64,000 bases of DNA from a virus. Below are positions 2,822 through 54,300 of this stretch, one piece after another. A program made the translations under genes and the position numbers. The DNA is taken from IMG/VR virus record IMGVR_UViG_3300044632_002025; one strand, written 5' to 3'. Each line of letters opens with the position of its first letter. Position 1 is the stretch's first letter. The notes beneath the pieces are model-generated. The model saw nothing but the letters and a program-made list of their open reading frames with translations. It made no database searches and had not been told where the DNA came from.

Positions 2822-2948
2822 CACAAAAGAGGAAAAGCAAGATTTAAGCGATTTAACCGATTGGGAGCGAGTTAAATCGATGAGTGATGCAGAAATCGAG
2901 GCTAATGCTTTGTCAGATACCGATGCTCTTCCTTTTGATGATGATTAG
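2808..2948 (+). pseudogene. Remnant of a BrnA/DUF4415-like antitoxin, N-terminal part only
   Basis: LTDWERVKSMSDAEIEANALSDTDALPFDDD fits the tDWxrvxxMtDeEIexaaxxDpDaxP motif. It overlaps the BrnT remnant by 14 nt as in TA operons, and the C-terminal DNA-binding part is missing. Confidence 0.45.
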
Positions 2949-3043
2949 GAAAATGCAGTTCTTAAACTTATCGGTTTAATGGAAGAAATAAACCTAGATG
3001 TAAAACCAGTTAAACAAAGACTAGCAGGAGAAAAATAAGGATG
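2949..3043 (+). repeat. 95-bp direct repeat, copy 2
   Basis: Duplicate of 2579-2673. It follows the TAG of the BrnA remnant in the same frame and ends in the ATG of 3041..3478. Confidence 0.85.
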
Positions 3044-3478
3044 AAAGAACTTCAAGTAGGGGACAAAATAGCGTCAATCGGTTACAGTTCTGCCTTTTCA
3101 GACTACTTTTCAGACTACTTTCGGGTATTTGAGGTAGTAAGAACAACACCAAAGAAAGCCAAAGTAAAATGTTTGAATGACAAAACATTTAGAGACAGAG
3201 AATTTCTCGTCGCCAGAAAGCCTTATTTCAATTCGTTTAGTGAGAAATACTGCTACCGGTTTCAGGGTGATTATACAGGGGGAGACGGGGTTTTCTTTGA
3301 TGAAGAAATTGAGAACCAATTAACTGAGTATCGAAAACTGAAAAAATTCAAGCGACAAGCTTTCATGGTTTGTGAATGGTCTAAGAATTTAGATTCCTAT
3401 ACAGAAAAAAACCATGTATTGTATGCTAAAATGGCAGAAGTGGCTCAAATTGTGGAAGAAATAAGAGGAAATGAGTAA
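3041..3478 (+). CDS. Hypothetical protein, paralog of 2219..2668
   Basis: Shared N-terminal motif with 2219..2668. Its stop overlaps the methyltransferase start (3471-3478). Confidence 0.6.
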   Translation: MKELQVGDKIASIGYSSAFSDYFSDYFRVFEVVRTTPKKAKVKCLNDKTFRDREFLVARKPYFNSFSEKYCYRFQGDYTGGDGVFFDEEIENQLTEYRKLKKFKRQAFMVCEWSKNLDSYTEKNHVLYAKMAEVAQIVEEIRGNE

Positions 3479-4499
3479 TTTCAAGTTTATCGACTTATTT
3501 GCGGGCATTGGCGGATTTCGGATAGCCCTGGAAAGTTTAGGGGGGGAGTGTGTATTTGCCTCTGAAATAGACAAATTCTGTCGACAAACCTATGAGGTCA
3601 ATTACGCCCATAAACCTGAAAACTCCGACATTCGGGAGCAGGATGAGAACCTAGTGCCAGACCACGACATATTGTGTGGGGGATTCCCATGTCAAGCCTT
3701 CTCACAGGCTGGCAAGCAGTTAGGATTTGAAGATGACCGAGGGGTACTCTTTCTGGACATAGTGAGAATCCTAAAAGCCAAAAGACCGAAAGCATTTATC
3801 TTGGAGAATGTGAAAGGTCTAATTACACATGACAAAGGGAGAACATTAACGACCATACTGAAAGCCTTGAGAGAGGACTTAGGCTACCTTGTACCTAAAC
3901 CGAGAATATTGAATGCCAAAGATTTTGGATTAGCCCAAAACCGACGGAGAGTCTTTATTGTGGGATTTCGGGGGGACTTAAATATTGGCTTATTCAGCTA
4001 CCCCTACCCCGTACCGCACAATAACTATGTCCAAAAGATTCTAGAACAAGAAGTATCCCCTAAATACTACATTTCCCAGAGGTATTGGGAAGGGTTAAAG
4101 GCGCATAAGTCCAGACACGAAGGGAAAGACAATGGATTCGGGTATCAGATTCTAGACCCCTACGGTGTTTCTAACACAATAATGGTTGGGGGACAAGGGC
4201 GGGAACGAAACTTAATTTATGACCCGTCAATAAAAAAGAGAGAAGGGCTTGACAGTAAATCTAATACAGAGTATATTAGAGTCATGACACCACGGGAATG
4301 GGCAAGACTACAAGGTTTTCCAGAAAGTTTTAAGATTGTAGTGTCCGACACTCAAGCCTATAAACAATTTGGCAATTCAGTAGCCATCCCAGTAGTGAGA
4401 ATGGTAGCACGAAACGTTTTGTTGGGACTCCAAGAAGCTGAACCAGAACTAAGCTTTTTGAATCCGACAGACTGGATACAATTACACTCAGGAATTTAA
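3471..4499 (+). CDS. DNA (cytosine-5)-methyltransferase
   Basis: Motif I FIDLFAGIGGF, motif IV GGFPCQAFS, motif VI ENV, motif VIII QNRRRVFIVG, motif X FGNSVAIPV. Confidence 0.95.
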   Translation: MSNFKFIDLFAGIGGFRIALESLGGECVFASEIDKFCRQTYEVNYAHKPENSDIREQDENLVPDHDILCGGFPCQAFSQAGKQLGFEDDRGVLFLDIVRILKAKRPKAFILENVKGLITHDKGRTLTTILKALREDLGYLVPKPRILNAKDFGLAQNRRRVFIVGFRGDLNIGLFSYPYPVPHNNYVQKILEQEVSPKYYISQRYWEGLKAHKSRHEGKDNGFGYQILDPYGVSNTIMVGGQGRERNLIYDPSIKKREGLDSKSNTEYIRVMTPREWARLQGFPESFKIVVSDTQAYKQFGNSVAIPVVRMVARNVLLGLQEAEPELSFLNPTDWIQLHSGI

Positions 4500-11998: not shown

Positions 11999-13873
11999 GT
12001 GAAGCAAGAAATCAATGTTAGTCAAAGTAAACATTTTTATAACGGTCTAATGCCAAGGTTAAACGAAGTAGGAATCCCACTTATCCCTGAATCCATGCGG
12101 AAGCAACTATTCGGAGGGGAACGTCAAAAGCCCTTCGCTGGTAGTGTTAAATTGGCTAAAGCTGAATTAGCCCGATTTGGACTGGATAATGTGGAAGTCG
12201 ATGTACCAGAAGACATTGAATTTGAGTTACCCCCACTACAGGGGGCAGACCTGGAAGAACATTTCAATAAAATAGCAGAATCCCAAGCCCAACCTTATTT
12301 ATCTATCGCAGAACAAATGGCCAGAGCCGTTATTCCAGCGAGACCCCACGAAATTCTGTTACGTCCAGGTTGGACGTGCTATGAACCAGGTGAAGAACCC
12401 TACCCCGTTCCGTACCCAGCAGAAGATGGACTGGTGTATGACGTGGAAGTTGCTGTAAGAAGTTCAAATTACCCTGTGATGGCTAGTGCTGTCTCACCCG
12501 TAGCTTGGTACTTTTGGGTTTCTCCGAAGTTGGCAACAGATGGCAGTGATGTCCTCTGTCCGCTAGGAAATAGCCCTAAACTGGTAGCTGGGTGGAATTG
12601 TTCTTATGATAAACAAAGAACCCTTGAACCGTATAGCCTAGAGTTAGGCGGACTCCGATTTTGGGATGTCATGTCCATGCACCAATGCGTGGGAGGGCTT
12701 TCTTCTAAACAACGTCCCCTAAGTCTAAAAAATGCCAAAGCAAAAGCTAATGGTGAGGACGCTGGATTAGATTATGCCTCTGCATGGCTTGATGTAAGCT
12801 CTGGTAATTCTTTAAAAGATGCCGCTCGGTTATACCTGGGTGTTGAGATGTCCAAAGACGACCGAGATTATTTTGTTACTGGAACCTTGCTTGAAATCAA
12901 AAATCGTTTTCAACAATTAGCTGACTATTGTGTGAAAGACACTGAGATTACCTTCAAACTTTATAAGCTATTGTGGGCAAGATTTCGGGAAAAATGCCCA
13001 TCTAACGTGACTTTCTTTGGGATGCTAGAAATGGGTACGGCTATCCTGCCTATTACCCGTGAATCGTGGTTCGGTTATATAGACAGAGCCGAAAGTAAAT
13101 TTGTTGAAGAAAAAACCCGTGTTGAGAAACATTTGCGTCTATTGGCAGATGAAGCGGTTGAGGGATTCTTAAACGGGAGTCTTGACCCAAAACTAGACCC
13201 GTGGTTATGTAATCTGGATTGGACTATGCCTTCTTCCCGGGCAAAAATCATGAAGGATAAGCCTGAGTGGTACAGAAAATTATTTAAGGGGGAAAAAATC
13301 AATCTAACGGTGAAAACCCAGTGTACTCCTTACTTACTTCGTTTAAAATGGTTTGACTACCCACTCTACCACCATCCCAAAAGAAAATGGGGCTTTGTGA
13401 CACCAGTTGGGGAAGAAGTCGAATCCAATTTAGACCCAATTTATCTAAATGATGTCGGGGAAGAAGTGGGGGAAACTGAAGCGACTAAGGTGTACTACCC
13501 TATACCCCATAAAGACGGGGATGACTCAAATGTGGGTTGCCCACTATCCAAAGATTATTTGTCTGAAATGGAGAAAGGGGTGCTAAACTCTGATTTCCCT
13601 GAAGCAAAACAAGCTCTTGAAGCGGCAATTTCCTGTTCGTACTGGGTATCAGTACAAAGTCGGGTAAAATCCCAGTTTGTTGTGATGAACAAAGACAACC
13701 AAACGGGATATATTATTCCCCAGATGGTGGTAGCAGGGACAGTCACGGGACGGGCAGTAGAAAGCACTTGGCTGACAGCATCTAACAGCAAAAAGAACCG
13801 TATAGGAAGCGAGATTAAAACCACAATTCGGATTCCTGAAGGTTATTTGCAAATCGGTGCTGATGTTGACAGT
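11999..13873 (+). CDS. Family A DNA polymerase, Pol-gamma-like, exon 1 (3'-5' exonuclease domain and polymerase N-part up to motif A)
   Basis: Exo motifs VYDVEVAV, AGWNCSYDKQ and YCVKDTEITFKLY. It ends ...IGADVDS, the first half of the Pol gamma motif A (GADVDSQELW). A GTG start at 11999 is possible, or ATG near 12050. Confidence 0.9.
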
Positions 13874-14771
13874 TAACACAATGGCTGTCGTTAAATCCCT
13901 TTAACTGCTGGAAAATCCAGTTAAGCCTTTACACCACGACCCTTTTAGGATACAATTAGGGTAGCGTTTAAAAAGTTAAAGGTTATGGACAATCAGCAGG
14001 AAAGCCTAGCTACAATCCCCGGTTTTAGATACTACAGTGCCTCTAAAACGGGTCGTATCTACTCCCACCTAACACAAAAATACCTGAAGCCTGTACCAGA
14101 TAAGTGGGGTTACTACCGAGTGACCGTCAAAGATGACAATGGTAAATGGTCTAAGAAAACCATACACCGATTAGTTGCTTTCGCTTTTTTACCAAACCCT
14201 GAAGGGTTCCCAGTAGTTCACCACATAGACGACTGCAAAACTAATAATTGTCTTGATAACTTAGAATGGTGTACCTACTCTCACAATAACCGCATGGATT
14301 TTGTTTTGAAGGGAGAGGGAAGAAAGGTCAGAAGAATGAAAGGTATAAACCAATTTGCTGAAACAAGAGAACGTATTAAAGATAGGGTATTGGAACTTAA
14401 AGCCCAAGGATTATCTAACGTTCGGATAGGAAAGCTAGTGGGAGTTTCAGGTGTCACGGTGGGAAAGGTTGTACAGGAATCTTCATCGACTAGAGAAAAG
14501 CTCAATAAACTAGAGGATAAGGAAGTTATAAAAATCTTTTTGGATGATGGGACTCAATCTGGTATAGCCGAGAAATACTCTGTTAGCCAAAATACAGTCT
14601 CATGTATAAAGAGAGGTAAGCTGTACCACAAACTCTTAAAGTCTAAAGGCCTAGTATCGTAGGGCTTAAGCAAGCTCGAAATGGGGGACACGGGAAACCG
14701 TGAAGATATAGTCAAATCTGTAGGGAAACTTACAGAGAATAGTCGGAAGCGGGCTATTCGTAATACAAATG
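13874..14771 (+). mobile_element. Group I intron carrying an HNH homing endonuclease gene
   Basis: The 5' exon ends in U (13873). P1 forms between GACAGU (13868-13873) and GCUGUC (13884-13889) with a U-G wobble at the splice site. The intron ends in G (14771). The 3' core contains GAAGATATAGTC and two GAAA-capped hairpins (CACGGGAAACCGTG, CTGTAGGGAAACTTACAG). Confidence 0.8.
13985..14662 (+). CDS. HNH homing endonuclease (NUMOD4-like N-terminus, HNH_3 core, C-terminal HTH)
   Basis: IPGFRYYSASKTGRIYS, VVHHIDDCKTNNCLDNLEWCTYSHN and GLSNVRIGKLVGVSGVTV. The gene lies entirely inside the intron. Confidence 0.85.
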   Translation: MDNQQESLATIPGFRYYSASKTGRIYSHLTQKYLKPVPDKWGYYRVTVKDDNGKWSKKTIHRLVAFAFLPNPEGFPVVHHIDDCKTNNCLDNLEWCTYSHNNRMDFVLKGEGRKVRRMKGINQFAETRERIKDRVLELKAQGLSNVRIGKLVGVSGVTVGKVVQESSSTREKLNKLEDKEVIKIFLDDGTQSGIAEKYSVSQNTVSCIKRGKLYHKLLKSKGLVS

Positions 14772-15623
14772 CAAGAGTTATGGTTATCCGACTTATTTGG
14801 TGATTCAAAGGTAGGGCTTATTGGGGGAACCCCTGCCAGTTTCCAAACCCTAGCGGGGCGCAAGGAGGATGGCAGTGATGTCCATTCAATGACCGCAAAA
14901 TTGCTGGGTGTGACCAGAGATGAAGCAAAAATTTCGGTCTACAGCCGGAGATATGGAGCCGGGTTAACTGCGATGACTAATTATCTGAGACAGTTCCGAA
15001 AATCTTTGACTTCCTCTCAGGCTAAACAGATTGCCACAGAGATGTTTACCAAAACCAAGGGGAAGAAAATTGAAGGACAATGGAAATTGGGTAGCGAGTC
15101 TGCAATGTTCAATGAAATGGAAAGGGTTGCTACCTCCCGCGACCCCCGAACCCCCGCTTTAGGGAGAACCTTAAGCGACGCTTTGCACCCCCGGTATACT
15201 GGTAATCGGGACTTCATGACCTCCAAAGTAAACTGGGTTTGCCAAAGTTCTGGTGTAGACTTTATGCACCTCTGTCTAACCGCCACATCCTATCTATGTC
15301 GAGAGTACAAAATTAACGCCCGCCTATGTATCACGATTCACGACGAGTACCGTTACATCGTAAAGAAAGAAGATTCAGCGAGGTTTTGCTTGGCCTTCCA
15401 GATTGCCCACCTCTGGACTCGTGCGATGTTCTGCTATTCAGTGGGGATATACGACCTCCCCGCATCAGTAGCATGGTTCTCTGGGGTGGACATCGACTTC
15501 ACAATTCGTAAGTCTCCAGACAGTCCAGCGATTACACCAAGTCAACCTCAAGGATTACCGTTAGGAAAACTCCGAACGATGCCTGAGATTTTGAAAGCAA
15601 CTGGTGGTTCTTTAACTAAATAG
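14772..15623 (+). CDS. Family A DNA polymerase, Pol-gamma-like, exon 2 (motifs A second half, B, C)
   Basis: Starts QELWLSDLFGD. Motif B is RDEAKISVYSRRYGAG and motif C is ITIHDEYRYIVKKED...IAHLWTRAMF, closely paralleling the Pol gamma motifs as I recall them. Confidence 0.9.
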   Translation, partial: QELWLSDLFGDSKVGLIGGTPASFQTLAGRKEDGSDVHSMTAKLLGVTRDEAKISVYSRRYGAGLTAMTNYLRQFRKSLTSSQAKQIATEMFTKTKGKKIEGQWKLGSESAMFNEMERVATSRDPRTPALGRTLSDALHPRYTGNRDFMTSKVNWVCQSSGVDFMHLCLTATSYLCREYKINARLCITIHDEYRYIVKKEDSARFCLAFQIAHLWTRAMFCYSVGIYDLPASVAWFSGVDIDFTIRKSPDSPAITPSQPQGLPLGKLRTMPEILKATGGSLTK

Positions 15624-19480: not shown

Positions 19481-19547
19481 GGGGGGTGTGATTTCCGCCC
19501 AAACCAGATGTGGACAGTCTAATAATGGAATACAGGAAGAAACTAAG

Positions 19548-19715
19548 ATGGTAAAGCCAACCGGTGGAGACGGTCGCCCTGACCGTAGAGAGAGAAAAAA
19601 ATCGAGTCCTAACGTAGTAGAGCGTGCGTTTGGGGCAGTAGGAGACAATCAAAAAAAGAGAGATTCCGCTTCGAGGACTGTAGAGGAAGCTTTTAAAAAA
19701 GGCAGAAAGGGTTAA
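19548..19715 (+). CDS. Small basic hypothetical protein
   Basis: ATG 19548 is preceded by AGGAAGAAACTAAG. The product is 55 aa and K/R rich. Confidence 0.35.
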   Translation: MVKPTGGDGRPDRRERKKSSPNVVERAFGAVGDNQKKRDSASRTVEEAFKKGRKG

Positions 19716-19761
19716 ACCACCTTTAACTAAGGTAAAGTCTAAAAGTTTTTTCTAAACCCCC

Positions 19762-19790
19762 TTGACATCCAATCCACTCTCTGTTATACT
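19762..19790 (+). promoter_or_regulatory. Sigma70-type promoter of the same family as 7459, 11836 and 48286
   Basis: TTGACA (19762-19767), 17 nt, TATACT (19785-19790), then GGGGTTAACCCAACAAAAAC as in the polymerase and sigma leaders. Confidence 0.65.
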
Positions 19791-19821
19791 GGGGTTAACC
19801 CAACAAAAACCAGAACCTGAA

Positions 19822-20118
19822 ATGGCTGTATTAGAACCAGAAAGACCAGATGATAATGATTATCATAAGCTAGTCGAAGCGCAAATAGACCTGCCACTAG
19901 AGTACCAATTAAAACTATCACTACTGCTGAGAGCAATAGAGGCAGAGTTTTCGCTGGATAAAGACCCGTCAGCAACACACATTAGATTCCCGAAAGAAGA
20001 CTTACAAAAAATTGTCAACCGACTAAAAGGAATGTACTCCGAGATGTACTGTAATATGGTAGCAACACAATTGTTCACCCAGAAAGCATTAGCGGAGAAA
20101 TGGGGCATTGAAAAATGA
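19822..20118 (+). CDS. Hypothetical protein
   Basis: Start moved to ATG 19822 because the track start is the -35 box. Confidence 0.5.
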   Translation: MAVLEPERPDDNDYHKLVEAQIDLPLEYQLKLSLLLRAIEAEFSLDKDPSATHIRFPKEDLQKIVNRLKGMYSEMYCNMVATQLFTQKALAEKWGIEK

Positions 20119-20144
20119 CCCCTGACAACCATAATCAGCCAATA

Positions 20145-20169
20145 AAAACCCTATCAAACTAGGGTTTTT
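20145..20169 (+). terminator. Rho-independent terminator
   Basis: AAAACCCTA / TAGGGTTTT 9-bp stem, 6-nt loop, trailing T. Confidence 0.55.
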
Positions 20170-20184
20170 CCCTAGTCAAAAAAT

Positions 20185-21735
20185 ATGCTTGAACAAGAAA
20201 GAAACGAGAAAAAGAAAGAGTTATTTAACACAATACCCTATGGATTAGCCCTTACTGGACGGGTAAGGGACTGGGGTAAACAACCTCAAGGACGACTCCC
20301 AGTTAGCTGTACTGTGTTCGATGTCCAAGACAGTATGGAAGGTAAAGACGGTATCGAAGATTCTTGGTTATTTACGAGTCACGGATTAAGAAATGCGGCT
20401 GGAGTAGCAATTAATCTATCGAATCTAAGACCTGCGGGGACTCAGAATGAGTTAGGGTTAACGGCATCTGGGCCAGTAAGTTTTACGGAGTTCTATTCTA
20501 AGATGAATGAAATCCTCCGTCGTGGGGGAATTTTCAAAAACGGAGCTTGCACGATTTACCTAGACTACGACCACCCTGACATTGAGAAATTTATCAATTG
20601 CAATGAATTTGCCAATGCGTGGGTAAAATTGGCAGTCTATGTAGACGAAGGAATCCGTAACCACCCAATCAAGAAACTACTAGCTAAAGCAGTAGACGAA
20701 GGTACTGTATGGTTAGCCAAGAAATGGTGGGATAAGGAGGGAGAACGTCTGTTCTCAAACGTTTGCCTTGAAATCGGGCTTAAAAGTCGTGCGACCTGTC
20801 TAATCTCTAATGAAAATTACGGATTACTGGAGCCAGAAGACTTCCCACAAGCATATCGGGAAGGGGCAGAATGGCTGTGCCAACTCCATGCAATCACCGG
20901 TGTGGGAGAGACAGGTCGATACCTGAGTCCTGAAGAAGACCGACAAATAGGATTAGGGGTTATTGGATTAGCATCGTTTTTAGCGATTCAAAAAGTAAAA
21001 TACGCTGAATTTGTCGATGCTTTGGAAGAATACGAAATCCTAACTTCAGGGTTCCGGGAGGACATCATCAAAGAGAACGAAGGGAATGACTATTTCATTG
21101 GTGGATGTTCGAGACCAATATACCTAGTCCATAAAATAGCTCTAGGCTTCATGGAAGCGGCGGTAGTGGGACGTAAGTACAATATGGATAGAATCTTTAC
21201 TGTAGCTCCAACTGCAACGAGTTTCACAAAAAACTTTGACAAGTTAGGGTATGCAATCACCCCTGAAATCAGCCCACCGCTAGGTCGGGAAATTGAAAGA
21301 ACATCCGAAACATTTGGTTCACAGATGTTCGCTTTTCATCCCGATGTAGAAATTGCGTCGGAAGTAGGGTGGGACGTTCAATGGAGACTACTGAACGGAT
21401 GGCAACGGTTGATGGATTCCACTGGATTAGGTCATTCGATTTCTTCCAACATTTGGGATACTTGCCCTGTCAATGAACAGTTCATTGACGACTTTATGGA
21501 TGCGGACATCAAAACGACCTATTATCGCCTCTCAACCCTTCAACAGGCAAATGACAAATCTGGCTATATTTCAGATGAGGCACTAGAAAAATTAGGTTAT
21601 CTTCCCTCGAAAGAAATGGATGAAGTAGACGACTTATTTGCGGAGTTATTTGGAGAAACCGACCCGACCCCAACCCCTGTTCAACCCGTGTGCAACATTG
21701 GTGACGGGTACTGTGAGGCCTGCGGCGGAGACTAA
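20185..21735 (+). CDS. Ribonucleotide reductase large (catalytic) subunit, minimal 516-aa form
   Basis: FSNVCLEIGL matches the NxCxE thiyl-radical loop (E. coli SNLCLEIALP). Also VSCTVFDV, VAPTATS and the C-terminal CEACGG cysteine pair. No ATP-cone. Confidence 0.85.
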   Translation: MLEQERNEKKKELFNTIPYGLALTGRVRDWGKQPQGRLPVSCTVFDVQDSMEGKDGIEDSWLFTSHGLRNAAGVAINLSNLRPAGTQNELGLTASGPVSFTEFYSKMNEILRRGGIFKNGACTIYLDYDHPDIEKFINCNEFANAWVKLAVYVDEGIRNHPIKKLLAKAVDEGTVWLAKKWWDKEGERLFSNVCLEIGLKSRATCLISNENYGLLEPEDFPQAYREGAEWLCQLHAITGVGETGRYLSPEEDRQIGLGVIGLASFLAIQKVKYAEFVDALEEYEILTSGFREDIIKENEGNDYFIGGCSRPIYLVHKIALGFMEAAVVGRKYNMDRIFTVAPTATSFTKNFDKLGYAITPEISPPLGREIERTSETFGSQMFAFHPDVEIASEVGWDVQWRLLNGWQRLMDSTGLGHSISSNIWDTCPVNEQFIDDFMDADIKTTYYRLSTLQQANDKSGYISDEALEKLGYLPSKEMDEVDDLFAELFGETDPTPTPVQPVCNIGDGYCEACGGD

Positions 21736-21749
21736 CTCTAGTTCTAAAA

Positions 21750-21808
21750 GGGTTAACCAAAATTTAACCAAGTTAACCCTTGACAAACCCTTTGAACCCT
21801 GTTAAAAT
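21750..21808 (+). promoter_or_regulatory. Promoter with upstream GGGTTAACC-N-GTTAACCC element (plus-strand copy)
   Basis: GGGTTAACCAAAATTTAACCAAGTTAACCC abuts TTGACA (21780-21785), then 17 nt and TAAAAT (21803-21808). Confidence 0.65.
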
Positions 21809-21837
21809 AGTAAAAACACCAAGAGCAAGATTTAGAC

Positions 21838-22059
21838 ATGGAAGAATACACTAGAGAAGAATTAATAAATATATCCCGTATTCTCCTGTTCGGTTTGCAT
21901 CTACAAGCAACGGAAGCGGGTAATGGAAGCGGGTTAAGTACAAGAACTGTAATATCTGGGGAGATATGGGATAAGATGTATGAAGGTGAATTAACCTTTT
22001 ACTTCCTTGTAAATCCTGATGGGGACTTAGTAATCACTACCCAACTCCAGACGACCTAA
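21838..22059 (+). CDS. Hypothetical protein
   Basis: 73-aa ORF downstream of the promoter at 21780. Confidence 0.45.
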   Translation: MEEYTREELINISRILLFGLHLQATEAGNGSGLSTRTVISGEIWDKMYEGELTFYFLVNPDGDLVITTQLQTT

Positions 22060-22064
22060 TTTTC

Positions 22065-22126
22065 AACCCAATGTCTAGTACAGGTGTTCTTCTATAACCC
22101 AATGTCTAGTACAGGTGTTCTACTAT
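22065..22126 (+). repeat. Two tandem 31-bp repeats containing CTAGTACAGGTGTTC
   Basis: AACCCAATGTCTAGTACAGGTGTTCT(T/A)CTAT occurs at 22065-22095 and 22096-22126, just upstream of 22149. Confidence 0.8.
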
Positions 22127-22148
22127 AAACCCAATCTAAAGGTGAAAA

Positions 22149-22427
22149 ATGGCTAAACTCTATGTGACGAAACTCTGCCTGACTAATGGGGTATACGAGG
22201 CAGAAGGGGATATTAAGGGGGAATCCTCCTATGTCCATCTGAGATACAGTTATGGTGCGAAAGACTATCTTCAGTTGGGGAGAGACGTTTTTGAGTCAAT
22301 CGAAGAAGCTAAAGAAGATTTCCTAAAACGAAAAGAAAAAGAAATCTCAAGTATGGAAAAGAAATTGGCTGAGTTAAAGGAATTAGAGTTTTTCTATGCT
22401 AAAAAGGTAAATACTGTTGACACCTGA
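22149..22427 (+). CDS. Hypothetical protein
   Basis: 92-aa ORF with a K/E-rich helical C-terminus. Confidence 0.45.
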   Translation: MAKLYVTKLCLTNGVYEAEGDIKGESSYVHLRYSYGAKDYLQLGRDVFESIEEAKEDFLKRKEKEISSMEKKLAELKELEFFYAKKVNTVDT

Positions 22428-22476
22428 CTAACCAAGTGTTATACTGTGATTAAATCAGCAAAGCGGAGATTTCAAA

Positions 22477-22737
22477 ATGGCAATTAGACTGGAGTTAGAA
22501 GGTGGGAAATATATCATTGTTCAAGAAGATAAACCACACCAATTTTACGCATTACGACACGGTGAAAAATGGCGAGATTTAATGGGAGATGGCTTGGTAC
22601 TAGCATTGTGTCAGCAGTTAAGTGACACACAGGAACTAGCCCAGAAACTACAAGACAGCCTAACTTTCGTAGAGGAAGAAATACTTGAACTCGGACAATA
22701 CTTTGAAGAACGGAACAGAAATTATCCCCTGAAATGA
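22477..22737 (+). CDS. Hypothetical protein
   Basis: 86-aa ORF. Confidence 0.45.
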   Translation: MAIRLELEGGKYIIVQEDKPHQFYALRHGEKWRDLMGDGLVLALCQQLSDTQELAQKLQDSLTFVEEEILELGQYFEERNRNYPLK

Positions 22738-22758
22738 CCCCCTAACCGGTAAAAAGAG

Positions 22759-23646
22759 ATGGAACTACTTCACTACCCAACTCAAAAACAAATGGAAATG
22801 CTCAAAAATCAAGCTGAAAAAATGTTAAATAACCAAACCCCAGTACTAACGATGCTAAAACCTGAATTTGCTGACTTAAAACCATTACCGAAACTGGTTA
22901 TCTGTTTTGGGGAGTCTGGCTCTGGGAAATCGGAGTTCCAACGGATTTTAGAATCTTGTCTCCATTTTTCCTGGATTCACCCAATTAATGACTTTAAACA
23001 ATTCCTGGAGCGAAAATTTGGTTTACAGGAGGGGGCGATGCACACCCCTGAAGGAAAAGCCACAAAGTTTGAGTTCAATAAGTTTTTATCCAAAGACTTA
23101 GAAATCCATCTGTATTGGTTCTTAGCAGACCACTATGGTATTACCGGAATTGAAACGCCAGACTATGTTAATGGAACAGGGAAAACACTAGGTACAATCA
23201 CCAGACTAATGGTAGACCGTATATTTGCCCAAGCCAAAACTTTAGGGGAAATAGAAACCCTGGCTTGGAAAGAAATGAAAGACATTGACCCTCATTTTTC
23301 TCTACCCTATGTCAGACGAGAATTAACCCGGTTACTGCGAGAAGGCAAGGACGTAGTAATGTTGGCAATAAGAAACCAGCATGAACAAGTTTTAATCCAG
23401 GAGGTAATGGAGCAAGGTAACTGTATTCCCCATTTAGTAAAAATTAACCGTCCTGGTTATGAAGGCTTATTTACTGATGTGGAACAAGATGAGATGTTCA
23501 ATGCTTTGCATGGGGTAGTTCCTAAAACCCAAATCTACTTGAGGACTAATTACTTCCCCACTTTAGCAGAGTGGAAAGCTGAGTGTTACGAATTAGGGTA
23601 CTTTCTGAAGTATAGTCTGGGTTTACCAGGTTTGACCCTATCTTAA
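22759..23646 (+). CDS. P-loop NTPase/kinase-like protein
   Basis: Walker A FGESGSGKSEF. No further motif recognised. Confidence 0.45.
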   Translation: MELLHYPTQKQMEMLKNQAEKMLNNQTPVLTMLKPEFADLKPLPKLVICFGESGSGKSEFQRILESCLHFSWIHPINDFKQFLERKFGLQEGAMHTPEGKATKFEFNKFLSKDLEIHLYWFLADHYGITGIETPDYVNGTGKTLGTITRLMVDRIFAQAKTLGEIETLAWKEMKDIDPHFSLPYVRRELTRLLREGKDVVMLAIRNQHEQVLIQEVMEQGNCIPHLVKINRPGYEGLFTDVEQDEMFNALHGVVPKTQIYLRTNYFPTLAEWKAECYELGYFLKYSLGLPGLTLS

Positions 23647-24048
23647 CCACAATTTAACGATGAGAAAATAAAAACATTAAAATCTCTTAATCAGAGAATT
23701 TCCGAATTAGAACAGTTAAGTTTTTCAGTCCAGACCCGTTCTGAACTATATAAACCTGTCTAGACCCGTTCAGACCTTGTTAACGCCCAAACAATACAGC
23801 CCAGTGTAGCCAAAAGCCGCACTGGGTATAGCTTTGTGTCCGCCCAGACCAAAAAGTTAAAAAACAAAAAAAATTTGGATGAGGAATAACTGACGCTTTA
23901 GGGGATACTTAAAAGAGGGGTATGGGGGGTCTACGGTAGAGTTTAATCGGGGCTAGAACAAGCGGAACAGGGGTAAGACAGGGTTAAGATAGTTAACCAT
24001 TGCAAAGAAGCTTTAAAGGGGGTTAAACTAGGGATTAACCAATCCAGA

Positions 24049-24213
24049 CTAAGGAGTAGATTTAGGAATAGATAGGGCTAGAACCCCAGCAATAAGGGTA
24101 GTAGTGGCATCTACTAATTTGGGGGCGTACTTATCGGGTTCTTTAATGGATAGGATACCTAAAAAAACAAAGCCTATAGAGGCCAGGTACATAATTATCT
24201 GACAGGGTTTCAT
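24049..24213 (-). CDS. Small two-segment membrane peptide (54 aa)
   Basis: MKPCQIIMYLASIGFVFLGILSIKEPDKYAPKLVDATTTLIAGVLALSIPKSTP. Below the ORF track cutoff, and coding status is uncertain. Confidence 0.3.
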   Translation of the reverse strand: MKPCQIIMYLASIGFVFLGILSIKEPDKYAPKLVDATTTLIAGVLALSIPKSTP

Positions 24214-24393
24214 ATTACATGAGCTAGATTACACATTTAGGATGAGCGATTGTGGGATGCTAGTTTTACTCACCAGTTTGCAAGCAACAGCTAATGCTTA
24301 ATCGAGAAGAATATGGTTGTACTAAGTATACGCCATGCAACAAGGTGACTGTAAGAGTATGGTTGTACTGGGGTAAGGCTGTACTAGGGATAC

Positions 24394-24437
24394 AAAAAAG
24401 CTAGTGGACTGCTTTTAAACTGCCCACTAGCTTTTTT
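24394..24437. terminator. Bidirectional rho-independent terminator
   Basis: A6-GCTAGTGG ... CCACTAGC-T6. It lies downstream of the minus-strand gene 24496..26169. Confidence 0.65.
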
Positions 24438-24495
24438 GTACAGAACGTGCTTTAGGGTGATTCCTGGTACTGAACCCCGTTAGTTCCTTTTGATA

Positions 24496-26169
24496 CTAGA
24501 TAAGCTGAAAGAAATTTGCCGCAACAAACTGTCCTACAGCTAACCCCATGTTAAAAGAATCAATACTAGCCTCCCGGACGTGAACTCCGCCATAAACACG
24601 GCTGAGGGCATCTTCCAATCCCGCTTCATAGAAGCTATCGAAATGACGAACGATACCTGGAAGTTCTTGGGAGACAGCACTAAACACATAGTTGTCACCA
24701 AAATACTCGGTCATCACTCCCGCAAATGCTCCCCCCATGGCAGAATGTCCTGACATATAATCTGGGAAAGGTGGGGAATTAACCCCCATTAATTCTGACA
24801 GCAAGGGTTTCCAATTGGGGTCGCCCACCGTATCAGCTATCCCGTCATTAGCCGCAAATCCTCCAGCAATTACGTCATCGGGGCGAGGTTGGAGTTCAGT
24901 GTATTTTTCTTTCCAAGCAACGATTACCGAATCTGCCAGCGCAGTATTTAAAGCGGCAAATAGGCTGGCATCTTCTTGTAAGGTATTGCCCTCACGCACG
25001 GCGATTTCTTGAGCAATTTGATTTAAGTGACCATAGGGACGGAAGGTATCAGCCCGGTCATAAGCCCAGAAAACAGCCATTTCTGTCTGGTCTGCATTGC
25101 GTAAAGTGGTAGTGAGAGCAGTGTTTTCCAATCCCCCATAGAGCCGGACTTCTTCAATTTCTTGGGCATACAATGTAGGATTTGTGTCAGGACGGCCATC
25201 AAGAGTCACATCAAGTTGATTGTCCGCAACAAACTGGTCAATGTCGCCAATTGTCCAAGTATCTACTCCCCCCCAATTCGCACCAACTGCTACCCCAGCA
25301 GTAGGGCCGGAGGTTTCTGGTCGCCAAACGTAGTCTCCCAGTGGCGGAGTGAAAGGTGTATTGTCGTTAGAACCATCATTAGCCCGTAAATTGATGCTCT
25401 GATTGGCCACTGAAATACCAAAATCAAACCCCTGGCTTTTCGCAATGGCACTGTCCTGAATCTCTGCCAGAGAATTAGATAATTGCTGTGAGAACAAACT
25501 ACTTTGTCCAGGTAATTGAGTAGAAAGAACTTGATAAGCCGCACCAACTACCGCCGCCTCTAACGAGGTATTTGTTGGTGCGTTCACATTTACAGCGTAG
25601 GAGGGATATAAAGTGTTGAAGGCATTGACCGTATCATAGACGGCAGTAGAAACCAACGCCATTAAGCGAGAACCTACTGTCGGTGCGACTCCCCGACCCG
25701 CTTTTCCTTCAGCTTGAATTGCATTTAAGGCGACCGCATTCCAGTCGATGACGGCGTTAGTATTGAGTCCCGATACTAATTTACTGGTGACATTATTGGT
25801 TTCCAGTTGTTCGGCAATTTGGTTATTTGCATCAACTTGAGCGATGAGAAAGTAAGCCCCTGGAGCGATGACTGAAGTATTGTTTTGATACGTTAAGTCC
25901 AAGGTAACTGACTGCCCAGCATTTAGGTTCAAGTTTGTGCTGACACTGGTGAGTAAGGCATCGTTACTGTCAATCTGACCGTCAGTAGAAATGTACAGGT
26001 TGACAGTAATGAGACCATTGGCAATCCCCGCTCGATTGGTGACAGAACTGAGACCTTTATTGGTAAGAATTACCTGTGCGCTTCCCTGAGACCCGAAGTC
26101 AACCGTAGTTGGTAAATTTATCGTGCCAAAACTGGCCACTAAATCTGGTAGATTAGGAAAGTTGAACAT
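24496..26169 (-). CDS. Vanadium-dependent haloperoxidase / PAP2 (acid phosphatase) superfamily protein with an N-terminal CARDB-like domain
   Basis: KYTELQPRP (Kx6RP), YMSGHS (PSGH-like) and SRVYGGVHVRE (SRx5H) are the three PAP2/V-haloperoxidase motifs. The N-terminal ~130 aa resemble CARDB (VTLDLTY...YFLIAQVDANNQIAE.ETNN). Confidence 0.75.
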   Translation of the reverse strand: MFNFPNLPDLVASFGTINLPTTVDFGSQGSAQVILTNKGLSSVTNRAGIANGLITVNLYISTDGQIDSNDALLTSVSTNLNLNAGQSVTLDLTYQNNTSVIAPGAYFLIAQVDANNQIAEQLETNNVTSKLVSGLNTNAVIDWNAVALNAIQAEGKAGRGVAPTVGSRLMALVSTAVYDTVNAFNTLYPSYAVNVNAPTNTSLEAAVVGAAYQVLSTQLPGQSSLFSQQLSNSLAEIQDSAIAKSQGFDFGISVANQSINLRANDGSNDNTPFTPPLGDYVWRPETSGPTAGVAVGANWGGVDTWTIGDIDQFVADNQLDVTLDGRPDTNPTLYAQEIEEVRLYGGLENTALTTTLRNADQTEMAVFWAYDRADTFRPYGHLNQIAQEIAVREGNTLQEDASLFAALNTALADSVIVAWKEKYTELQPRPDDVIAGGFAANDGIADTVGDPNWKPLLSELMGVNSPPFPDYMSGHSAMGGAFAGVMTEYFGDNYVFSAVSQELPGIVRHFDSFYEAGLEDALSRVYGGVHVREASIDSFNMGLAVGQFVAANFFQLI

Positions 26170-48345: not shown

Positions 48346-51300
48346 ATGCCAGAACAGCAAGGATACAATGTATCGTCACTATTTGTTTCGATAGGATTAG
48401 ATACAAGTCCAGCAGAAAGAACTTTAAACCAATTTGAGAACTTATTGCAAAGTTCTGTAAATCGGTTAATCTTCACATTTACAGAAGACGTATCGCAAAG
48501 ATTCGCCAGAAGTTTTGAAGGTCTAGGTCGTGGCATTGGTAACTCTGTCCAAAGAAGTCTGAACGAGGCTATGGGGCAAACCAAGAGAATTGAGAAAGAA
48601 GCCACAGAATCCTTAGCAAATATAAATAAAGCGGCTCAAACAGGTTTAAGTGAAGTATCAAGTGCCACAACTGGGGCTTTAAGTGAGGTCAACAAAGCCT
48701 TAAAAGATTTAGAAGCCAATTCCAAAAAAACCTTAGAAAACACTCAAAAAGAAGTAAAACGACAATTAGACGGTATAAGAAATTTAGCGGCATCCTCCAA
48801 TCTAGACCAAGATAAGGTAATAGGGGCGATGGCCGGTAGTCTTTCTAGGCAACTAAAAGCGATGGACTTTTCGCAAATAGAGGGGAGTTTACAAGCTATT
48901 CAAAGAAAAGCTTTAGATTTAGGGTCTACACTGGAAAAACAGGTAGGAGACATAAGAAATAGCCTAGCCCAACCTGCGGAAGAATTAGAAAAGGCATTAA
49001 ATAACTCGTTAAAAAAGACCCAAGAAGCAGTAGGAATAGCTGACAAAGCCTTAGAAGAATCTGGGGTAAAATTTGCTGAAAAAGTAGGTTCAGCCTACAA
49101 ACAAGCATCGGAAACTTTTGCTAAAGAAGGAGTAGGTTCAGCAGAGAAAGCGATAAATAGTCTATCAAAAGGTGTAGAATCCGCAATTAAAGAATATGAG
49201 AGAGCGGTAGAAAGTACAGCCAACGATTTGTCTAAAAAAGCGCAACAGTTTCAAGTCTTGGGTACAACTGTGGCCATGGCTGAAGCCGAAAGACTTTATG
49301 CTTTAGCCAATAGTGTTCGTTTAACGTCAGTGAACACCATAGCATCAGTGAGAGAAAGTGCTACCCAAGCAACCCAAAGCATATCCAAAGAAATGGGTAA
49401 AGCGGGGAGTGAAGCGGGGTCTGCATTCGGAGGTGGATTTGGAGCGGCTTTAGGGGGGGTCGTTGGTGGCCCGGTGGGAAGTCTTCTAGGTGCGGCAATA
49501 GCAGAAGCCCTGGCCAACGGACTTCAGTTAGCTTTAAACTCCAGAATGGAGGTCATTAAAGCTACTCTCGGCGGTTATATGAACACGGTAGCCCGTGGGA
49601 TGATGAACTTTGCCGAAGAAGAAAGGCGTATAAACATGGGTTTATATGTTACGGGGAAAAGGGAAGGCTTTGGACAAGATAGTGAGGAATTTAACACAAA
49701 ATCTAAGGACGTACAGAGGGCAGTTACCTTGACTGCATCTGACCTGTCTTATGGACGGGTAGAAATTGCGGAACTATTCAAACAATTGGTAAAAGCCGGG
49801 TTTAATTATAATGAGATTATAGGTGGAACAACCCCCGAAGAAATGAGACGGGGGGCATTGTATCAAACTGCTGGTTTAGGGGAAGCAGTAGAGTTACCAG
49901 GAGACCAATTAGATGAAACCAGCATCTTAGTAAAACAATTTAAAATGGCATTCCCTGAAAATAGTATAAAAACTATTGTTAGAGAAATCGCCGCATTGGG
50001 ACTGTCCACTCCTGCCCAATTTGATAGATTTAAATATGCAACTCAGGATTCGCTATCTGCGGCGGCCGTAGCTGGAATCCCGATGAGAGATGTGATGCAA
50101 GGGTTTGCAACGATGTTTAACTTAAGTACCCCTGAAGTAGCGGGTACAATGTTAAAAACCATCTACAACGGTATAAGTGGGGGTAATGTAAACCGCCAGA
50201 TGTACGGGGTAGTGTCCAAGTATTATCAGGGAGAGGATGGGCAAGGAGATTTACTAACAGCATTAAGAAATCCTGGAGACTTTGCCGCAGAATTTGCTAG
50301 ATTAGACACTGTGATGGATTCAATCCTGAAAAAGGGTGAGGCAGTGGGAATTGCGGGGATGGAGAATGTAACAGGAGACTATTACAAAAGTCTAGGGTTA
50401 CAAGAACAAGCAGATATGAGGGCTAGAGGGGTATCTAATCTGTTCGGTGGTGGAGACACCTTCCAAATTGGTTATAGAAACTTAACTCTTGAAGGACGTG
50501 AAAAAGCAGAAGAACAAAAACGAGAGTTTGCCAACTTTAATAATGAGAAAGACGGGGAATTACTACCCGACTTCATTCGACTGCGCCAAAAGGGATTAAA
50601 GGGGGCAATGGAGTTAATCGAATCCACCAAAGAAAACGTGGAATCGTTTGCCGCTAAATTGGCTCCTGGTTTTACTCAAATGGTGCTATTTTTCAACAAA
50701 GTAGCCAACGAGTTAACTGCTGGTATGGAGAAGTTTTCCGGGCCACTGGAGAGAATATCTGAAAAATTAGGCGAAGTATTTGGCAATCTATCAGAGAATA
50801 AACTCATTGATAAATTTGTGGATGGAATTTCCAGTACAATGGGTAATGTTGGTAGAATCTTTGAGAACTGGTTAAACTCAGCAATAGAATTTGTATCTAA
50901 AGGGGAAAACGTAGATACAGTATTTTTAAATCTTAACAATCTGTTATCGGATTTTGCGGGGTTAATGCAAAACCTAGCAGTAGCATTTAAGTCATTTCTA
51001 CCTTTGATAAACGAAGCCACTGGTGCATTATCTAAAGCGGGGGTAGAGTCCGAAGTAAGACAAGTTTCAGAAGAACTAAAAATCAGGGGAGTAGGAGAGG
51101 TTAGTGAAAGAGTATTTAACTATGGGAGTCAAGTAGGCAATGTAGAGGGAATTAAAATTACAAACTCCGAGGCACTAGGGACAGTATCGGAGGAAGAAGC
51201 TAAACAAATAGCAAAATCCATTAAGGGTAAAAGCTCTACTGCCACACAAAGTTATATAAGAACTGGGAGAGAACGGTCTCATGCTGGAATGTTTGGGGCA

Positions 51301-54300
51301 GTAACAGCCCCAGAAAGTTTTGCGGATGTGGATGAATCTACCAGTGTTGGGTTAATCCAACAAGGAATGAAAAGGGTAGAAGCTAACGGTAGAACCTACT
51401 ATATAACCGGAGGTACAGGGGAGGGTCAGAGTCAGTTTTACGAATTAATAGATGGTGATTTTAGAAAGGCCACAGGAACAATCGACTCAGACCCTAAAAC
51501 CCGTGAAAATCTGATAGAAACTCTAATGCCTAGGGAGGGGAATAATCCCCCCCCAATGGATTTATCAACGGCTGGTATGGGGTCATTCCTAAATCCTAAA
51601 ATACTGGCAGAAATCGCTAAGGAAAATGGGAATCTTAAAAACCGTCAAGCCGCCACATTAGAAGCCCAACAATCAAGAGTTCGGGACTTATTTGGTAATA
51701 ATGCAGTTTTTGATGAGAAAACAGGGAAAGTAAGAGAACAGGATAGTGAGGGTAACAGAGCAGATTTATCTTCTAGTAGTTTCGGTACAGAGGCATTATC
51801 CAAAACCCCTGAACGTCTGAATGCCTTAATCCGTACTGGGGCAGGTCTAGAGGGAAGTTCTGCGGAGCAAGCCCTAAGAGAAACGGCAAGCAGAAGCAAA
51901 ATCACCAATCTACAAACAATTACTGGTCTATCTTCTGGTAAAACCAAAGGTAAAGAGGGGGAAGCCTTCTTATTAAGTCAAGCAGATGTCTTAGAAACGG
52001 TAAGGAGAAATGAGAAAGAAGGGGCGGACATAGCCAAAACTGCTTCGGAGTTAACACAAGACACAACCAAAGAATTAGAGGAAGCCCTACGGAAAAAGGG
52101 ACAATTAAAACCTGCGTGGGATAGAATTAAGAAACAGATTGAGTCTGGAGAAATTGTAGGGGACAGCACAACGTTCCTAGAACAATTTATCACAAAAGCC
52201 CGTGAAAAGGTAAGCGACAATAAAACCCCGTTTGCCGAAAGAAATGCAATGAATGAGAATTTAATTGCATTGACTAAAGATTTAAACACGGATAAACCAA
52301 AACCTTTAGAAAAACCTGGGGCAGTTAAAGAAGGTGTTCCTGCTGACCTAGAAAAGTACCGTCGTCTTATTGACGATATGAACCGGAGCAGAATTGAGCA
52401 AGAAAACCAGATTCTCCAACTAAGGCAAAAATCTTTAGAATTGGAGCGTCAATCTTTTGTGTTGGCTACGGCATTTAAAGGACAAGTAAATGCTAATTTG
52501 GAGCAATTCTTTGGTATCTTAAGTCAGGCAGAAAATACCCTGTTAGGGAATCAGACAAAACTAAGACAAATAGACCAATTCTTTGTTGACCGTCGGAACA
52601 ATCTTGCTAATCAGTTTAAAGATGTAAACCCGCAGGTAGGTGGGGGCATCCAGGACAACTATGAGGGTACGGGGCAACCAGTATTTGTACCTAAAGCATC
52701 CCCTGATAAAAATGTTAATGCACTATCTAAAGACTTGATAAAAGGGCAATTAGATGCTATCAAAGAGAAACAGAATGAAAGGGCTGAGATTGCTAAACAG
52801 AATGAGCTAATTCAGCGTAATCTTACCCAACAAATAAGAAATGCTGTAGCCCAAACGTTCCAACAAGCCACAAACACAGCAACTGGGTTAGCCTCATCTT
52901 TCGGGGGTAACAGTGAGTTTATGGTAAAAACCACTCAACTCTTTGATGGGGTAAGAACTCAAGGGGTACAATTAGCTCAACAAATACAAGCCTTAAAAGT
53001 TATTCAACAGACAAATCCTAGTGGTTTTGGGGCGCAGGATGCTAAAGCCCTCTCAGGATTAGAAGGTGTATTTAAGCAAATTCCCAGGATGCTGAAGGAA
53101 GCGTTAGGAGACGCACTTGCTTCCCTACTCCGTCAGGTAAATACTTTCTTCCAAGACCTATCAGAACGGTCTAGACAAAGAAGTAATGAATTGATGGGTA
53201 TGGTGATGCCTGGTGGAGCTTCTTCGGGTTTATTGACGATTGTGGGGGACTTACAAAATAGTCTGTTCAAAAATCAACAAGAGAGTTTAGAACTACAACA
53301 AGAATCTTCACAGATAAGAAGACAAGTAGAGCTAAACCGTTCACTGGGGGCTGTGTTCCCTGACCAATTCTTTGCCCAAAAAGTATCGATGGGTGAGGCA
53401 TCTATAGGTGTGAATGATGCAAAAAGAGGGGGGTTAGAGTTAGAAGCTAAAAATCTCCTAGAGACTTCCAAAATTAAAGCCAATATAACCTACTTCAACA
53501 GCTTTATTGAGTTATTTCAAGGAGCTAGAGGTCTTAGCAGAGGATTCAGTAGTGTCTCAGATGCTGTAACAGAAGTAGAGCAAAGACGAGAAGCAATTAC
53601 TAAATCTATCTTCGACTTAGAAACTCAAATACAGCTAATGGAATCTCAACTTGAGACCATGAATAGTGTATTTGGTTCTCTGAGTTTAGTTGACCGTGAG
53701 AGACTAGAAGAAGGTAAGAAATATTTAGAGCAACAAAAACAAGCCACAATAGCCCTTCAAAAAATCAATGATGCACTAAGAGGGGAATTAGGGAAATTGG
53801 CAATAGCTAAAGTCCAAGAGGATGCTAGGGGTAATGCTCAAAGTGCATTGATGGAATCTAATTCTGCCCGGTCACAAATTCTCGGAATGTCAGATTCCCG
53901 GTCTACTCGTAGGGAAGCCGCTTCTATAGATTTAGAAAATTCCCGTATTGATGCAATAAAAAGAGTAACAGAAGCTACTCTCAAAAGTGCTGAAGAAAGA
54001 GCTAATATAGTTGCAGAATTAGCCAACATGGACTCAAATGCGGCTAAGGGTATGTATAACACACCTGAAGCTCAAGCGGAAATAGCTAGAAAATATGTTG
54101 AGTACCAATCTCGACTCATAGCAATAGACAATGAAGTTGGGAATGCCCGTGTGATGGCGTACAACAACTTAAAAGTCCAAGTTGAAAAATCTGCCTTAGA
54201 GTTGGATGAAGGCTATCGTGCAAACGTTCAAATAGCCAATACTGTTGATGGGGCTTTCTCCAATCTTTATGATATTCTCACCGACTCCAGTAAATCTTTT

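Follow-up and report, generated by a model that had tools for sequence, protein, structure and literature searches.

The DNA analysed here, IMG/VR virus record IMGVR_UViG_3300044632_002025 (64,000 nucleotides (nt), referred to in full as the window), contains a family A DNA polymerase gene that is interrupted by an insert of 898 nt within the codons of its catalytic motif A. In our reading, which we hold with a probability of roughly 0.92, the window belongs to a long-tailed cyanophage related to Mic1, whose replicative DNA polymerase, an enzyme of the mitochondrial gamma (Pol gamma) type, is split in motif A by a group I intron of subgroup IA2 carrying an endonuclease gene similar to that of I-HmuI.

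The interrupted polymerase gene and the boundaries of the intron

The gene and its insert are composed of the following parts (HTH, helix-turn-helix; aa, amino acids):
12050-13873 (+): exon 1 of the Pol gamma-like DNA polymerase, with the exonuclease domain, a linker and the first half of motif A (...GADVDS)
13874-14771 (+): group I intron, 898 nt, subgroup IA2-type (Rfam Intron_gpI, covariation, intron-less alleles)
13985-14662 (+): homing endonuclease gene within the intron, 225 aa, with NUMOD4, HNH_3, HTH, linker (SSSTRE) and second HTH; stop codon UAG at 14660-14662
14772-15623 (+): exon 2 of the polymerase, which completes motif A (QELW) and holds motif B (RDEAKISVYSRRYGAG) and motif C (ITIHDEYRYIV); DNA_pol_A

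In the list of open reading frames (ORFs), the first polymerase ORF spans 11999-13876 (+) and ends in ...IGADVDS and a stop codon, while the third ORF spans 14769-15623 (+) and begins with MQELWLSDLFGD, just as a first-pass annotation of this DNA had noted. In Pfam, the exon 1 ORF matches DNApol_Exo (PF18136, the exonuclease domain of the mitochondrial polymerase) with an E-value of 6.6e-80 and the exon 2 ORF matches DNA_pol_A. Joining 13873 to 14772 yields 2727 nt in frame, encoding 908 aa with GADVDSQELW restored. The alignment of the joined protein with yeast Mip1 (9c51, E 7e-195) covers residues 18-901 and has no gap at the GADVDS/QELW junction, human POLG is matched with E 6e-170, and motifs B and C lie within the blocks aligned with Mip1 and POLG. 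Having the exonuclease domain and full-length homology that includes motifs A, B and C, the enzyme falls into the POLG/Mip1 clade of family A. The first-pass annotation had proposed a Pol gamma-like enzyme from motifs paralleling human POLG in the downstream part, and had called it an uncommon polymerase type for a phage; both statements hold, as relatives occur in only 11 INPHARED phage records (Mic1, A-HIS1/2, the S-TIM5 group and S-CBWM1), all of them cyanophages. Since the similarity to Mip1 and Mic1 sets in at residue 18, translation probably starts at ATG 12050 rather than at GTG 11999, where the mechanically derived ORF begins.

Intron-less alleles, which the first-pass annotation had suggested looking for in related phages, were sought by a protein-guided scan of viral contigs (given as L numbers). 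They were found in contigs L016 and L017, which encode a polymerase 88% identical over 341 aa with an uninterrupted junction (...GADVDSQELALSDL...). Because L016 and L017 read continuously through the junction, both intron boundaries are fixed. The join of 13873 to 14772, earlier proposed to recreate the GADVDS-QELW of motif A, is in frame and is seen contiguous in these two contigs, and exact excision restores an uninterrupted frame, as is characteristic of group I introns. The insert, of phase 0, separates the motif A codons for Ser and Gln. It begins with UAA; the 5' exon ends in U (U13873) and the intron in G (G14771), as had also been described. At the insertion site the DNA of L016 and L017 reads GATGTCGATTCA directly followed by CAGGAATTGGCT, whereas every intron-bearing allele has GA(C/T)GT(T/G)GACAGT before the intron and CAAGAGTTATGG after it. 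Intron-less and intron-bearing alleles thus differ in the Ser codon and at nearby synonymous positions, exactly where helix P1 must pair. The endonuclease target is probably located in the same Ser-codon region, the L016-type intron-less target being GATGTCGATTCACAGGAATTGGCT and the recoded intron-plus junction GATGTTGACAGTCAAGAGTTATGG.

The ribozyme core and the endonuclease frame within it

The proposed helices of the intron are listed in order of their position in the window, all on the plus strand:
13868-13889 (+): P1, exon GACAGU (13868-13873) with internal guide GCUGUC (13884-13889), wobble U13873-G13884
13896-13901 (+): P3 5' strand UCCCUU, pairing with GGGGGA 14683-14688; 100% paired, 5/6 pairs compensatory
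13907-13997 (+): P4, GCUGG 13907-13911 with UCAGC 13993-13997
13916-13989 (+): P5, UCC 13916-13918 with GGA 13987-13989
13919-13984 (+): P5 extension, hairpin ACCCU/AGGGU at 13939-13962; compensatory AUCCC/GGGAU in L007
13999-14482 (+): P6, whose extension holds the NUMOD4-HNH-HTH coding part
13999-14001 with 14480-14482 (+): proximal P6 pairing GGA/UCU; four pair types in RNAalifold
14005-14007 with 14475-14477 (+): P6 pairing CCU/AGG
14011-14017 with 14467-14473 (+): distal P6 pairing UACAAUC/GGUUGUA
14486-14492 (+): P7 5' strand (guanosine-binding helix), U14486, bulged C14487 and GACUA 14488-14492, inside the endonuclease ORF; pairs with UAGUC 14709-14713 and A14714
14493-14658 (+): enlarged P7.1, encoding the second (C-terminal) HTH; enlarged by ~165 nt
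14659-14661 (+): G-U-A linker
14662-14677 (+): P7.2, hairpin GGGCUU-AAGC-AAGCUC; covaries
14683-14688 (+): P3 3' strand
14689-14702 (+): P8, CACGG-GAAA-CCGUG, with GAAA loop
14703-14708 (+): J8/7, AAGAUA
14709-14714 (+): P7 3' strand, UAGUC-A
14718-14771 (+): intron 3' region with P9, P9.1 and the 3' tail ending in G14771
14718-14723 with 14730-14735 (+): P9, CUGUAG/UUACAG; 5/6 pairs compensatory
14738-14744 with 14752-14758 (+): P9.1, AAUAGUC/GGCUAUU; 6/7 pairs compensatory

Covariation was scored on an alignment of 10 family members, termed A3, that consists of core-only constructs from which ORF-filled or hypervariable distal loops were deleted; the scored structure was written from the window sequence and comprises 50 proposed pairs. 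These core-only constructs replaced more lightly trimmed ones, in which MAFFT had misaligned the distant members. In A3 the 50 pairs are 95.8% paired, compared with 78.4% for shuffled alignments and 35-43% for slid partners, compensatory changes occur in 36 of the pairs, and none of 500 shuffles reaches any of the observed measures. The few cells scored as unpaired (in P4, P5, P8 and P9 of Mic1, L013, L014 and L025) reflect slips of the alignment where hairpins differ in length and do not mark genuine breaks. Covariation supports P1, P3, P4, P5, P6, P7, P7.2, P8, P9 and P9.1, and RNAalifold, run independently on A3, recovers P1, P3, P4, P5, proximal P6, P7.2, P8, P9 and P9.1. The distal P6 pairings were read by eye and are kept in L007 and L025. 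On the loop-deleted constructs the core thus has both group I domains, P3-P4-P5-P6 and P7-P3'-P8, with the P3/P7 pseudoknot, and the bulged P7, the predicted site of guanosine binding, the J8/7 consensus and the terminal G are in place. All core helices are fully paired in the window. The first-pass annotation had called 13874-14771 a group I intron and had made this depend on a foldable P3-P9 core; the claim stands, with P1 and the P3-P9.1 core covarying. Its observation of GAAGATATAGTC in the 3' core together with GAAA hairpins is likewise matched, by the same string at 14702-14713 and by the GAAA loop of P8.

P1 corresponds to the 6-bp GACAGU/GCUGUC helix with a U-G pair at the splice site that had been described before, and it covaries: it is 100% paired, and the U-G wobble is invariant in 8/8 sequences. 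In L025 (CACGGCU/GGUCGUG) and L006 (AGAGGGU/GCUCUCU), where the introns reside in other host genes, 4/6 pairs are changed on both sides. That P1 is wholly different yet paired in these two is expected, because the internal guide matches the host exon. The placement of P7 inside the endonuclease ORF follows from several observations. An 11-mer, TTCATCGACTA, is identical to J6/7-P7 of Mic1 (two matches in the window compared with 0.22 expected), and the homologous ORF of L025 ends (...VQESSQTI and stop) in a canonical P7.1 (UCUA-GAAA-UAGA), directly after CAGACUA. Moreover, the pair flanking the P7 bulge covaries with the base after UAGUC, being U-A in the window and Mic1, A-U in L007, L020, L006, L013 and L014, and C-G in L003, L022 and L025.

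Between P7 and P3' the intron has P7.1 and P7.2, connected by G-U-A, a link described as the hallmark of subgroup IA2 (PMC3428280), from which we took the criterion. By analogy with the intron of phage Pf-WMP3 (PMC3428280), the predicted fold is of IA2 design: it has no P2, P7.1 and P7.2 are joined by G-U-A and UAA stands at the start of the intron. A canonical P7.1 is seen in Mic1, L003, L013, L014 and L025, and in orthologues without a homing endonuclease gene (HEG) this helix consists of UCC-GAAA-GGA only; in the window it is enlarged and coding.

A scan of the whole 64-kb window at the Rfam gathering threshold returned no match. When scanned by E-value against 4227 families, the window gave Intron_gpI (RF00028) as its sole match, with 35 bits and E 3.1e-5 and an alignment that is sensible in the 3' part only; the curated gathering score of this family is 50 bits, which is an annotation threshold and not a structural definition. 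The Rfam scan proposed in the first-pass annotation therefore agrees with it in the family found, while the score stays under the cut-off. The HEG-less Mic1 intron aligns with Intron_gpI over its full length (1-253) at 45.5 bits and E 2e-10, with P1 at the predicted 5' splice site. The ~640 nt of ORF insertions cannot be bridged by the Rfam model.

The endonuclease exceeds the Pfam cut-offs for HNH_3 (30.6 bits, cut-off 24.8) and NUMOD4 (28.2 bits, cut-off 23.4), matches HTH families in addition, and aligns across NUMOD4 and HNH, catalytic His and Asn columns included, with the solved structure of I-HmuI (1u3e, E 9e-10), so that by domain content and homology it is an HNH homing endonuclease of the I-HmuI type. 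Homologues number 695 in a large protein collection, and 1087 phage records contain matches. Since I-HmuI and I-PfoP3I are nickases, nicking is the expectation for the 225-aa protein.

The first-pass annotation was right in assigning a NUMOD4/HNH endonuclease and mistaken in placing it in one internal loop, as the frame spans P5', P4', P6, P6', P7 and P7.1. Its AUG at 13985 adjoins and overlaps the P5 3' strand; from there the frame passes through P4' (13993-13997) and the 5' strands of P6. The NUMOD4-HNH-HTH coding part fills the P6 extension, after which the frame re-enters the core through P6' (14467-14482) and continues over J6/7 and the 5' strand of P7 (14482-14492, UUCAUCGACUA, read as Ser-Ser-Ser-Thr-Arg), so that the linker SSSTRE is encoded by J6/7-P7. 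In the window and L007 lineages the frame extends for ~57 more codons, a second HTH (GerE/Sigma70_r4-like) within the enlarged P7.1, and its UAG (14660-14662) lies partly in the G-U-A linker, the last base of the codon being the first of P7.2. A course of the ORF through P6a to P7.2 is not a new arrangement, because it has already been described in Pf-WMP3 (PMC3428280). We had first supposed that the endonuclease gene takes the place of P7.1, its ATG falling in J6/7-P7 and a degenerate P7 strand lying close to the end of the ORF (GUCUA ~14636 or GCCUA ~14645). It was ruled out as AUGGACAAUCAGC aligns with P5'-P4' of HEG-less introns, the L025 ORF ends in a canonical P7-P7.1, and the exact J6/7-P7 11-mer is present at 14482-14492.

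Allele states, proposed mechanism and competing explanations

Relatives of the intron were gathered by pattern scans of contigs:
Pol gamma gene, same site (L003, L019, L022): insert of 294 nt, without ORF
Pol gamma gene, same site (L007, L012, L023, L020): insert of 894 nt, with a 224-aa endonuclease ~48% identical to that of the window
Pol gamma gene, same site (L005): nearly the window's own sequence
Large terminase gene of Leptotrichia-type phages (L002, L004, L006, L008-L011, L024): related core, GIY-YIG-like ORF in P6
Viral contigs of 288 kb (L013) and 136 kb (L015): related core
L014: related core, LAGLIDADG-like ORF upstream of P3

At one and the same polymerase site three states are thus found: empty (L016, L017), HEG-less (Mic1, L003, L019, L022) and HEG-bearing (window, L005, L007, L020). 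Between the window and L005, exon 1 is 96.6% and exon 2 95.2% identical overall, whereas 897/898 positions of the intron are identical and the 300-nt flank on either side is at least 99% identical; window positions 13574-15071 thereby hold ~5 mismatches in 1.5 kb compared with ~50 expected. This looks like a recent co-conversion tract, as homing with co-conversion of the flanks produces.

Among partial homologues of the endonuclease, the closest (P0003, 164 aa, 61% identity) is encoded in L025. This intron splits a Pol I-like family A polymerase (DNA_pol_A_exo1 and DNA_pol_A) at IAGIDFTA/QEVL, which is the homologous motif A position because BLASTP aligns it with IGADVDS/QELW without a gap. 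The same motif A site is therefore occupied in genes of the Pol gamma-like type and, in L025, in one of the Pol I-like type; terminase and other genes in unrelated phages contain a related core.

The mechanism that we propose for the element rests on its structure, the comparative data and experimentally characterised relatives. The transcribed intron would fold into P1 and P3-P9.1, with P7.1 and P7.2 and without P2. Guanosine would be bound at P7 and the RNA cut after U13873, which would then be joined to C14772, following the terminal G14771, to give one polymerase of 908 aa (or 891 aa). Because the intron opens with UAA, unspliced RNA would give only a truncated exon 1 product. Ribosome transit and ribozyme folding would compete on any one RNA molecule, as follows from the course of the ORF, which begins at the P5 3' strand, passes P4', P6 and the 5' strand of P7, and ends at the GUA linker preceding P7.2. 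During mixed infection the endonuclease would presumably nick or cut intron-less polymerase alleles near the insertion site, and repair would copy the intron together with flanking exon sequence into them; we propose this homing step because of the endonuclease family and the population evidence. The Mic1 transcriptome paper (PMC11237433) does not mention splicing.

A broader joint reading, for and against which we see the chances as evenly divided, combines ongoing homing, a jump between clades and a switch between translation and splicing. Under it, a single IA2 intron/HNH lineage may currently be homing in natural populations of freshwater cyanophages, because three allele states share one site and an intron 99.9% identical, with co-converted flanks, sits in a genome otherwise 3-5% diverged. 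The same lineage would have crossed between deeply divergent family A polymerase clades at the motif A site D-x-x-x/Q-E. Finally, translation and splicing could possibly exclude each other on one RNA, because the endonuclease frame threads the guanosine-binding strand of P7, with a second HTH gained inside P7.1.

Several observations weigh against an IA2 intron that splices and homes. Both Rfam scores, that of the window and that of the ORF-less Mic1 orthologue, fall below the 50-bit cut-off. Alignment A3 leans towards the proposed structure because the deletion boundaries were our own choice, and the five central P7 pairs are uninformative because they are invariant. For the base of the enlarged P7.1 in the window only a weak, putative GA/UC pairing can be given, and P10 is weak, with about 2 bp. 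Splicing and homing are inferred from structure and from relatives, and selection on motif A, not recent transfer, could partly explain the near-identity with L005.

Were the polymerase truly split, its two ORFs would be translated apart and assemble non-covalently, and the insert would be a free-standing endonuclease cassette. Both halves are indeed open frames, an ATG is present at 14769, and the Mic1 annotation has two separate coding sequences (CDSs). Yet the break lies in catalytic motif A, the residues of which are contiguous in every solved Pol gamma, and the ATG of 'MQELW' (14769-14771) is made up of the final three bases of the intron, terminal G included. It has no counterpart at the 3' end of the Mic1 intron (...CAGGG) and is thus not a conserved start codon. 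The insert moreover has a covarying ribozyme core, and HEG-less inserts of 294-298 nt would not be explained by a gene cassette, so that we consider a split polymerase very improbable. Slightly less remote, though still improbable, is that the intron is a decaying relic in which the ORF through P7/P7.1 cripples self-splicing and excision is inefficient or depends on a host or phage protein factor. The ORF takes up five core strands with P7.1 enlarged by ~165 nt, the Rfam score drops from 45.5 bits in the HEG-less form to 35 bits, and the weakness of P10 would fit as well. Decay is however at odds with the full pairing of all core helices in the window and with two HEG-bearing lineages (~68% nt identity) that both keep the core through compensatory changes. 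The polymerase is presumably essential, and the Pf-WMP3 intron, with an ORF similarly placed, self-splices efficiently (PMC3428280). An intein or a group II intron was set aside, as the first intron triplet is a stop codon, intein and reverse-transcriptase domains were not seen, and the core is that of group I.

Known systems, further relatives and genome context

An element of this kind is already known: the Mic1 intron was published in 2020, and those of Pf-WMP3, SPO1 and PhiI share the same design. Mic1 (MN013189), the closest isolate, has a 298-bp intron between ORF86 and ORF85 of its DNA polymerase gamma gene (Yang et al. 2020, PMC7156551). The paper calls it 'an intron' only, without typing, structure or splicing (PMC7156551). 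The host gene is orthologous (61% aa identity in exon 1), the insertion point is identical (GACAGU/.../CAAGAG) with the same P1, and the ribozyme core is homologous, with 87% identity over the 3' 112 nt. The Mic1 intron differs in lacking an endonuclease gene and in that its P5 extension is longer, its P6 short and its P7.1 10 nt in length. For Pf-WMP3, whose IA2 intron encodes I-PfoP3I, self-splicing and nicking were demonstrated experimentally (2012, PMC3428280), whereas for the element of the window both are predictions. The two resemble each other in belonging to freshwater cyanophages and interrupting a family A DNA polymerase, in UAA as the first intron bases, in the IA2 design with P7.1/P7.2 linked by G-U-A and no P2, and in an HNH ORF that runs from P6a across P7 to P7.2. 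They differ in that the Pf-WMP3 polymerase is of the T7-like clade, with the insertion in the finger subdomain (Pro363/Asn364), and in that HNH is C-terminal in I-PfoP3I and N-terminal in the window's endonuclease, as in I-HmuI. The Bacillus phages SPO1/SP82 (I-HmuI/I-HmuII) and the T7-like phages PhiI/W31, cited in PMC3428280, likewise have IA2 introns in phage family A polymerases with HNH nicking enzymes. Unlike the window, these have Gram-positive or enteric hosts, other insertion sites and, in PhiI/W31, the ORF in P6a, and their endonucleases have only 25-35% aa identity to that of the window.

For annotation, the two 'DNA polymerase gamma' CDSs of the window and of Mic1 should each be recorded as one joined gene, and the middle ORF, which one source labels 'predicted transcriptional regulator', as a homing endonuclease and not a regulator. 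An empty site, an ORF-less intron and two diverged ORF-bearing introns at one catalytic motif form a series for studying the homing cycle, and the endonuclease is a candidate for a site-specific nickase whose target sequence is conserved among Pol gamma genes. The known workings of such elements are unchanged by this finding.

The relative in L025 occupies 2891-3621 of that contig (ENA LIAN20-1 scaffold_3809) and is an IA2 intron carrying the 164-aa endonuclease. The terminase introns carry an identical P7.2 22-mer in the same ribozyme core and split ..ILFRG/LDDPLKVTS.. in AT-rich phages and in a contig of a Leptotrichia metagenome-assembled genome, which was also the one match when genome contigs were scanned with the core pattern. 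Short blastn matches to the P7-P7.2-P8 core of Mic1 were obtained in MG592459 (Vibrio phage 1.084.O, 99026-99104), OR532847 (Klebsiella phage RCIP0053, 21216-21269) and PQ867851 (16505-16539); these stretches, which are unannotated or labelled 'hypothetical', may hold IA2 introns that have escaped annotation.

The genome in the window is siphovirus-like, encoding a major head protein, a tape measure protein of 2612 aa and a tail protein, and its gene order of helicase, small ORFs and polymerase is that of Mic1. The 2612-aa ORF (48346-56184, +) has weak tape-measure matches, and its length would imply a very long tail, as in Mic1-like siphoviruses. At 20185-21735 (+) lies a compact 516-aa ORF resembling ribonucleotide reductase, of which the Pfam barrel-domain profile is matched over its first 131 positions only. 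No second intron was found near this gene (19500-24500), which is a single 516-aa ORF without an Rfam match. A 557-aa ORF at 24496-26169 (-) combines CARDB, vanadium chloroperoxidase N-terminal and PAP2 domains; such haloperoxidase/phosphatase-like genes are unusual in phages. A C-5 cytosine DNA methyltransferase (PF00145, E 1e-97) is encoded at 3471-4499 (+).

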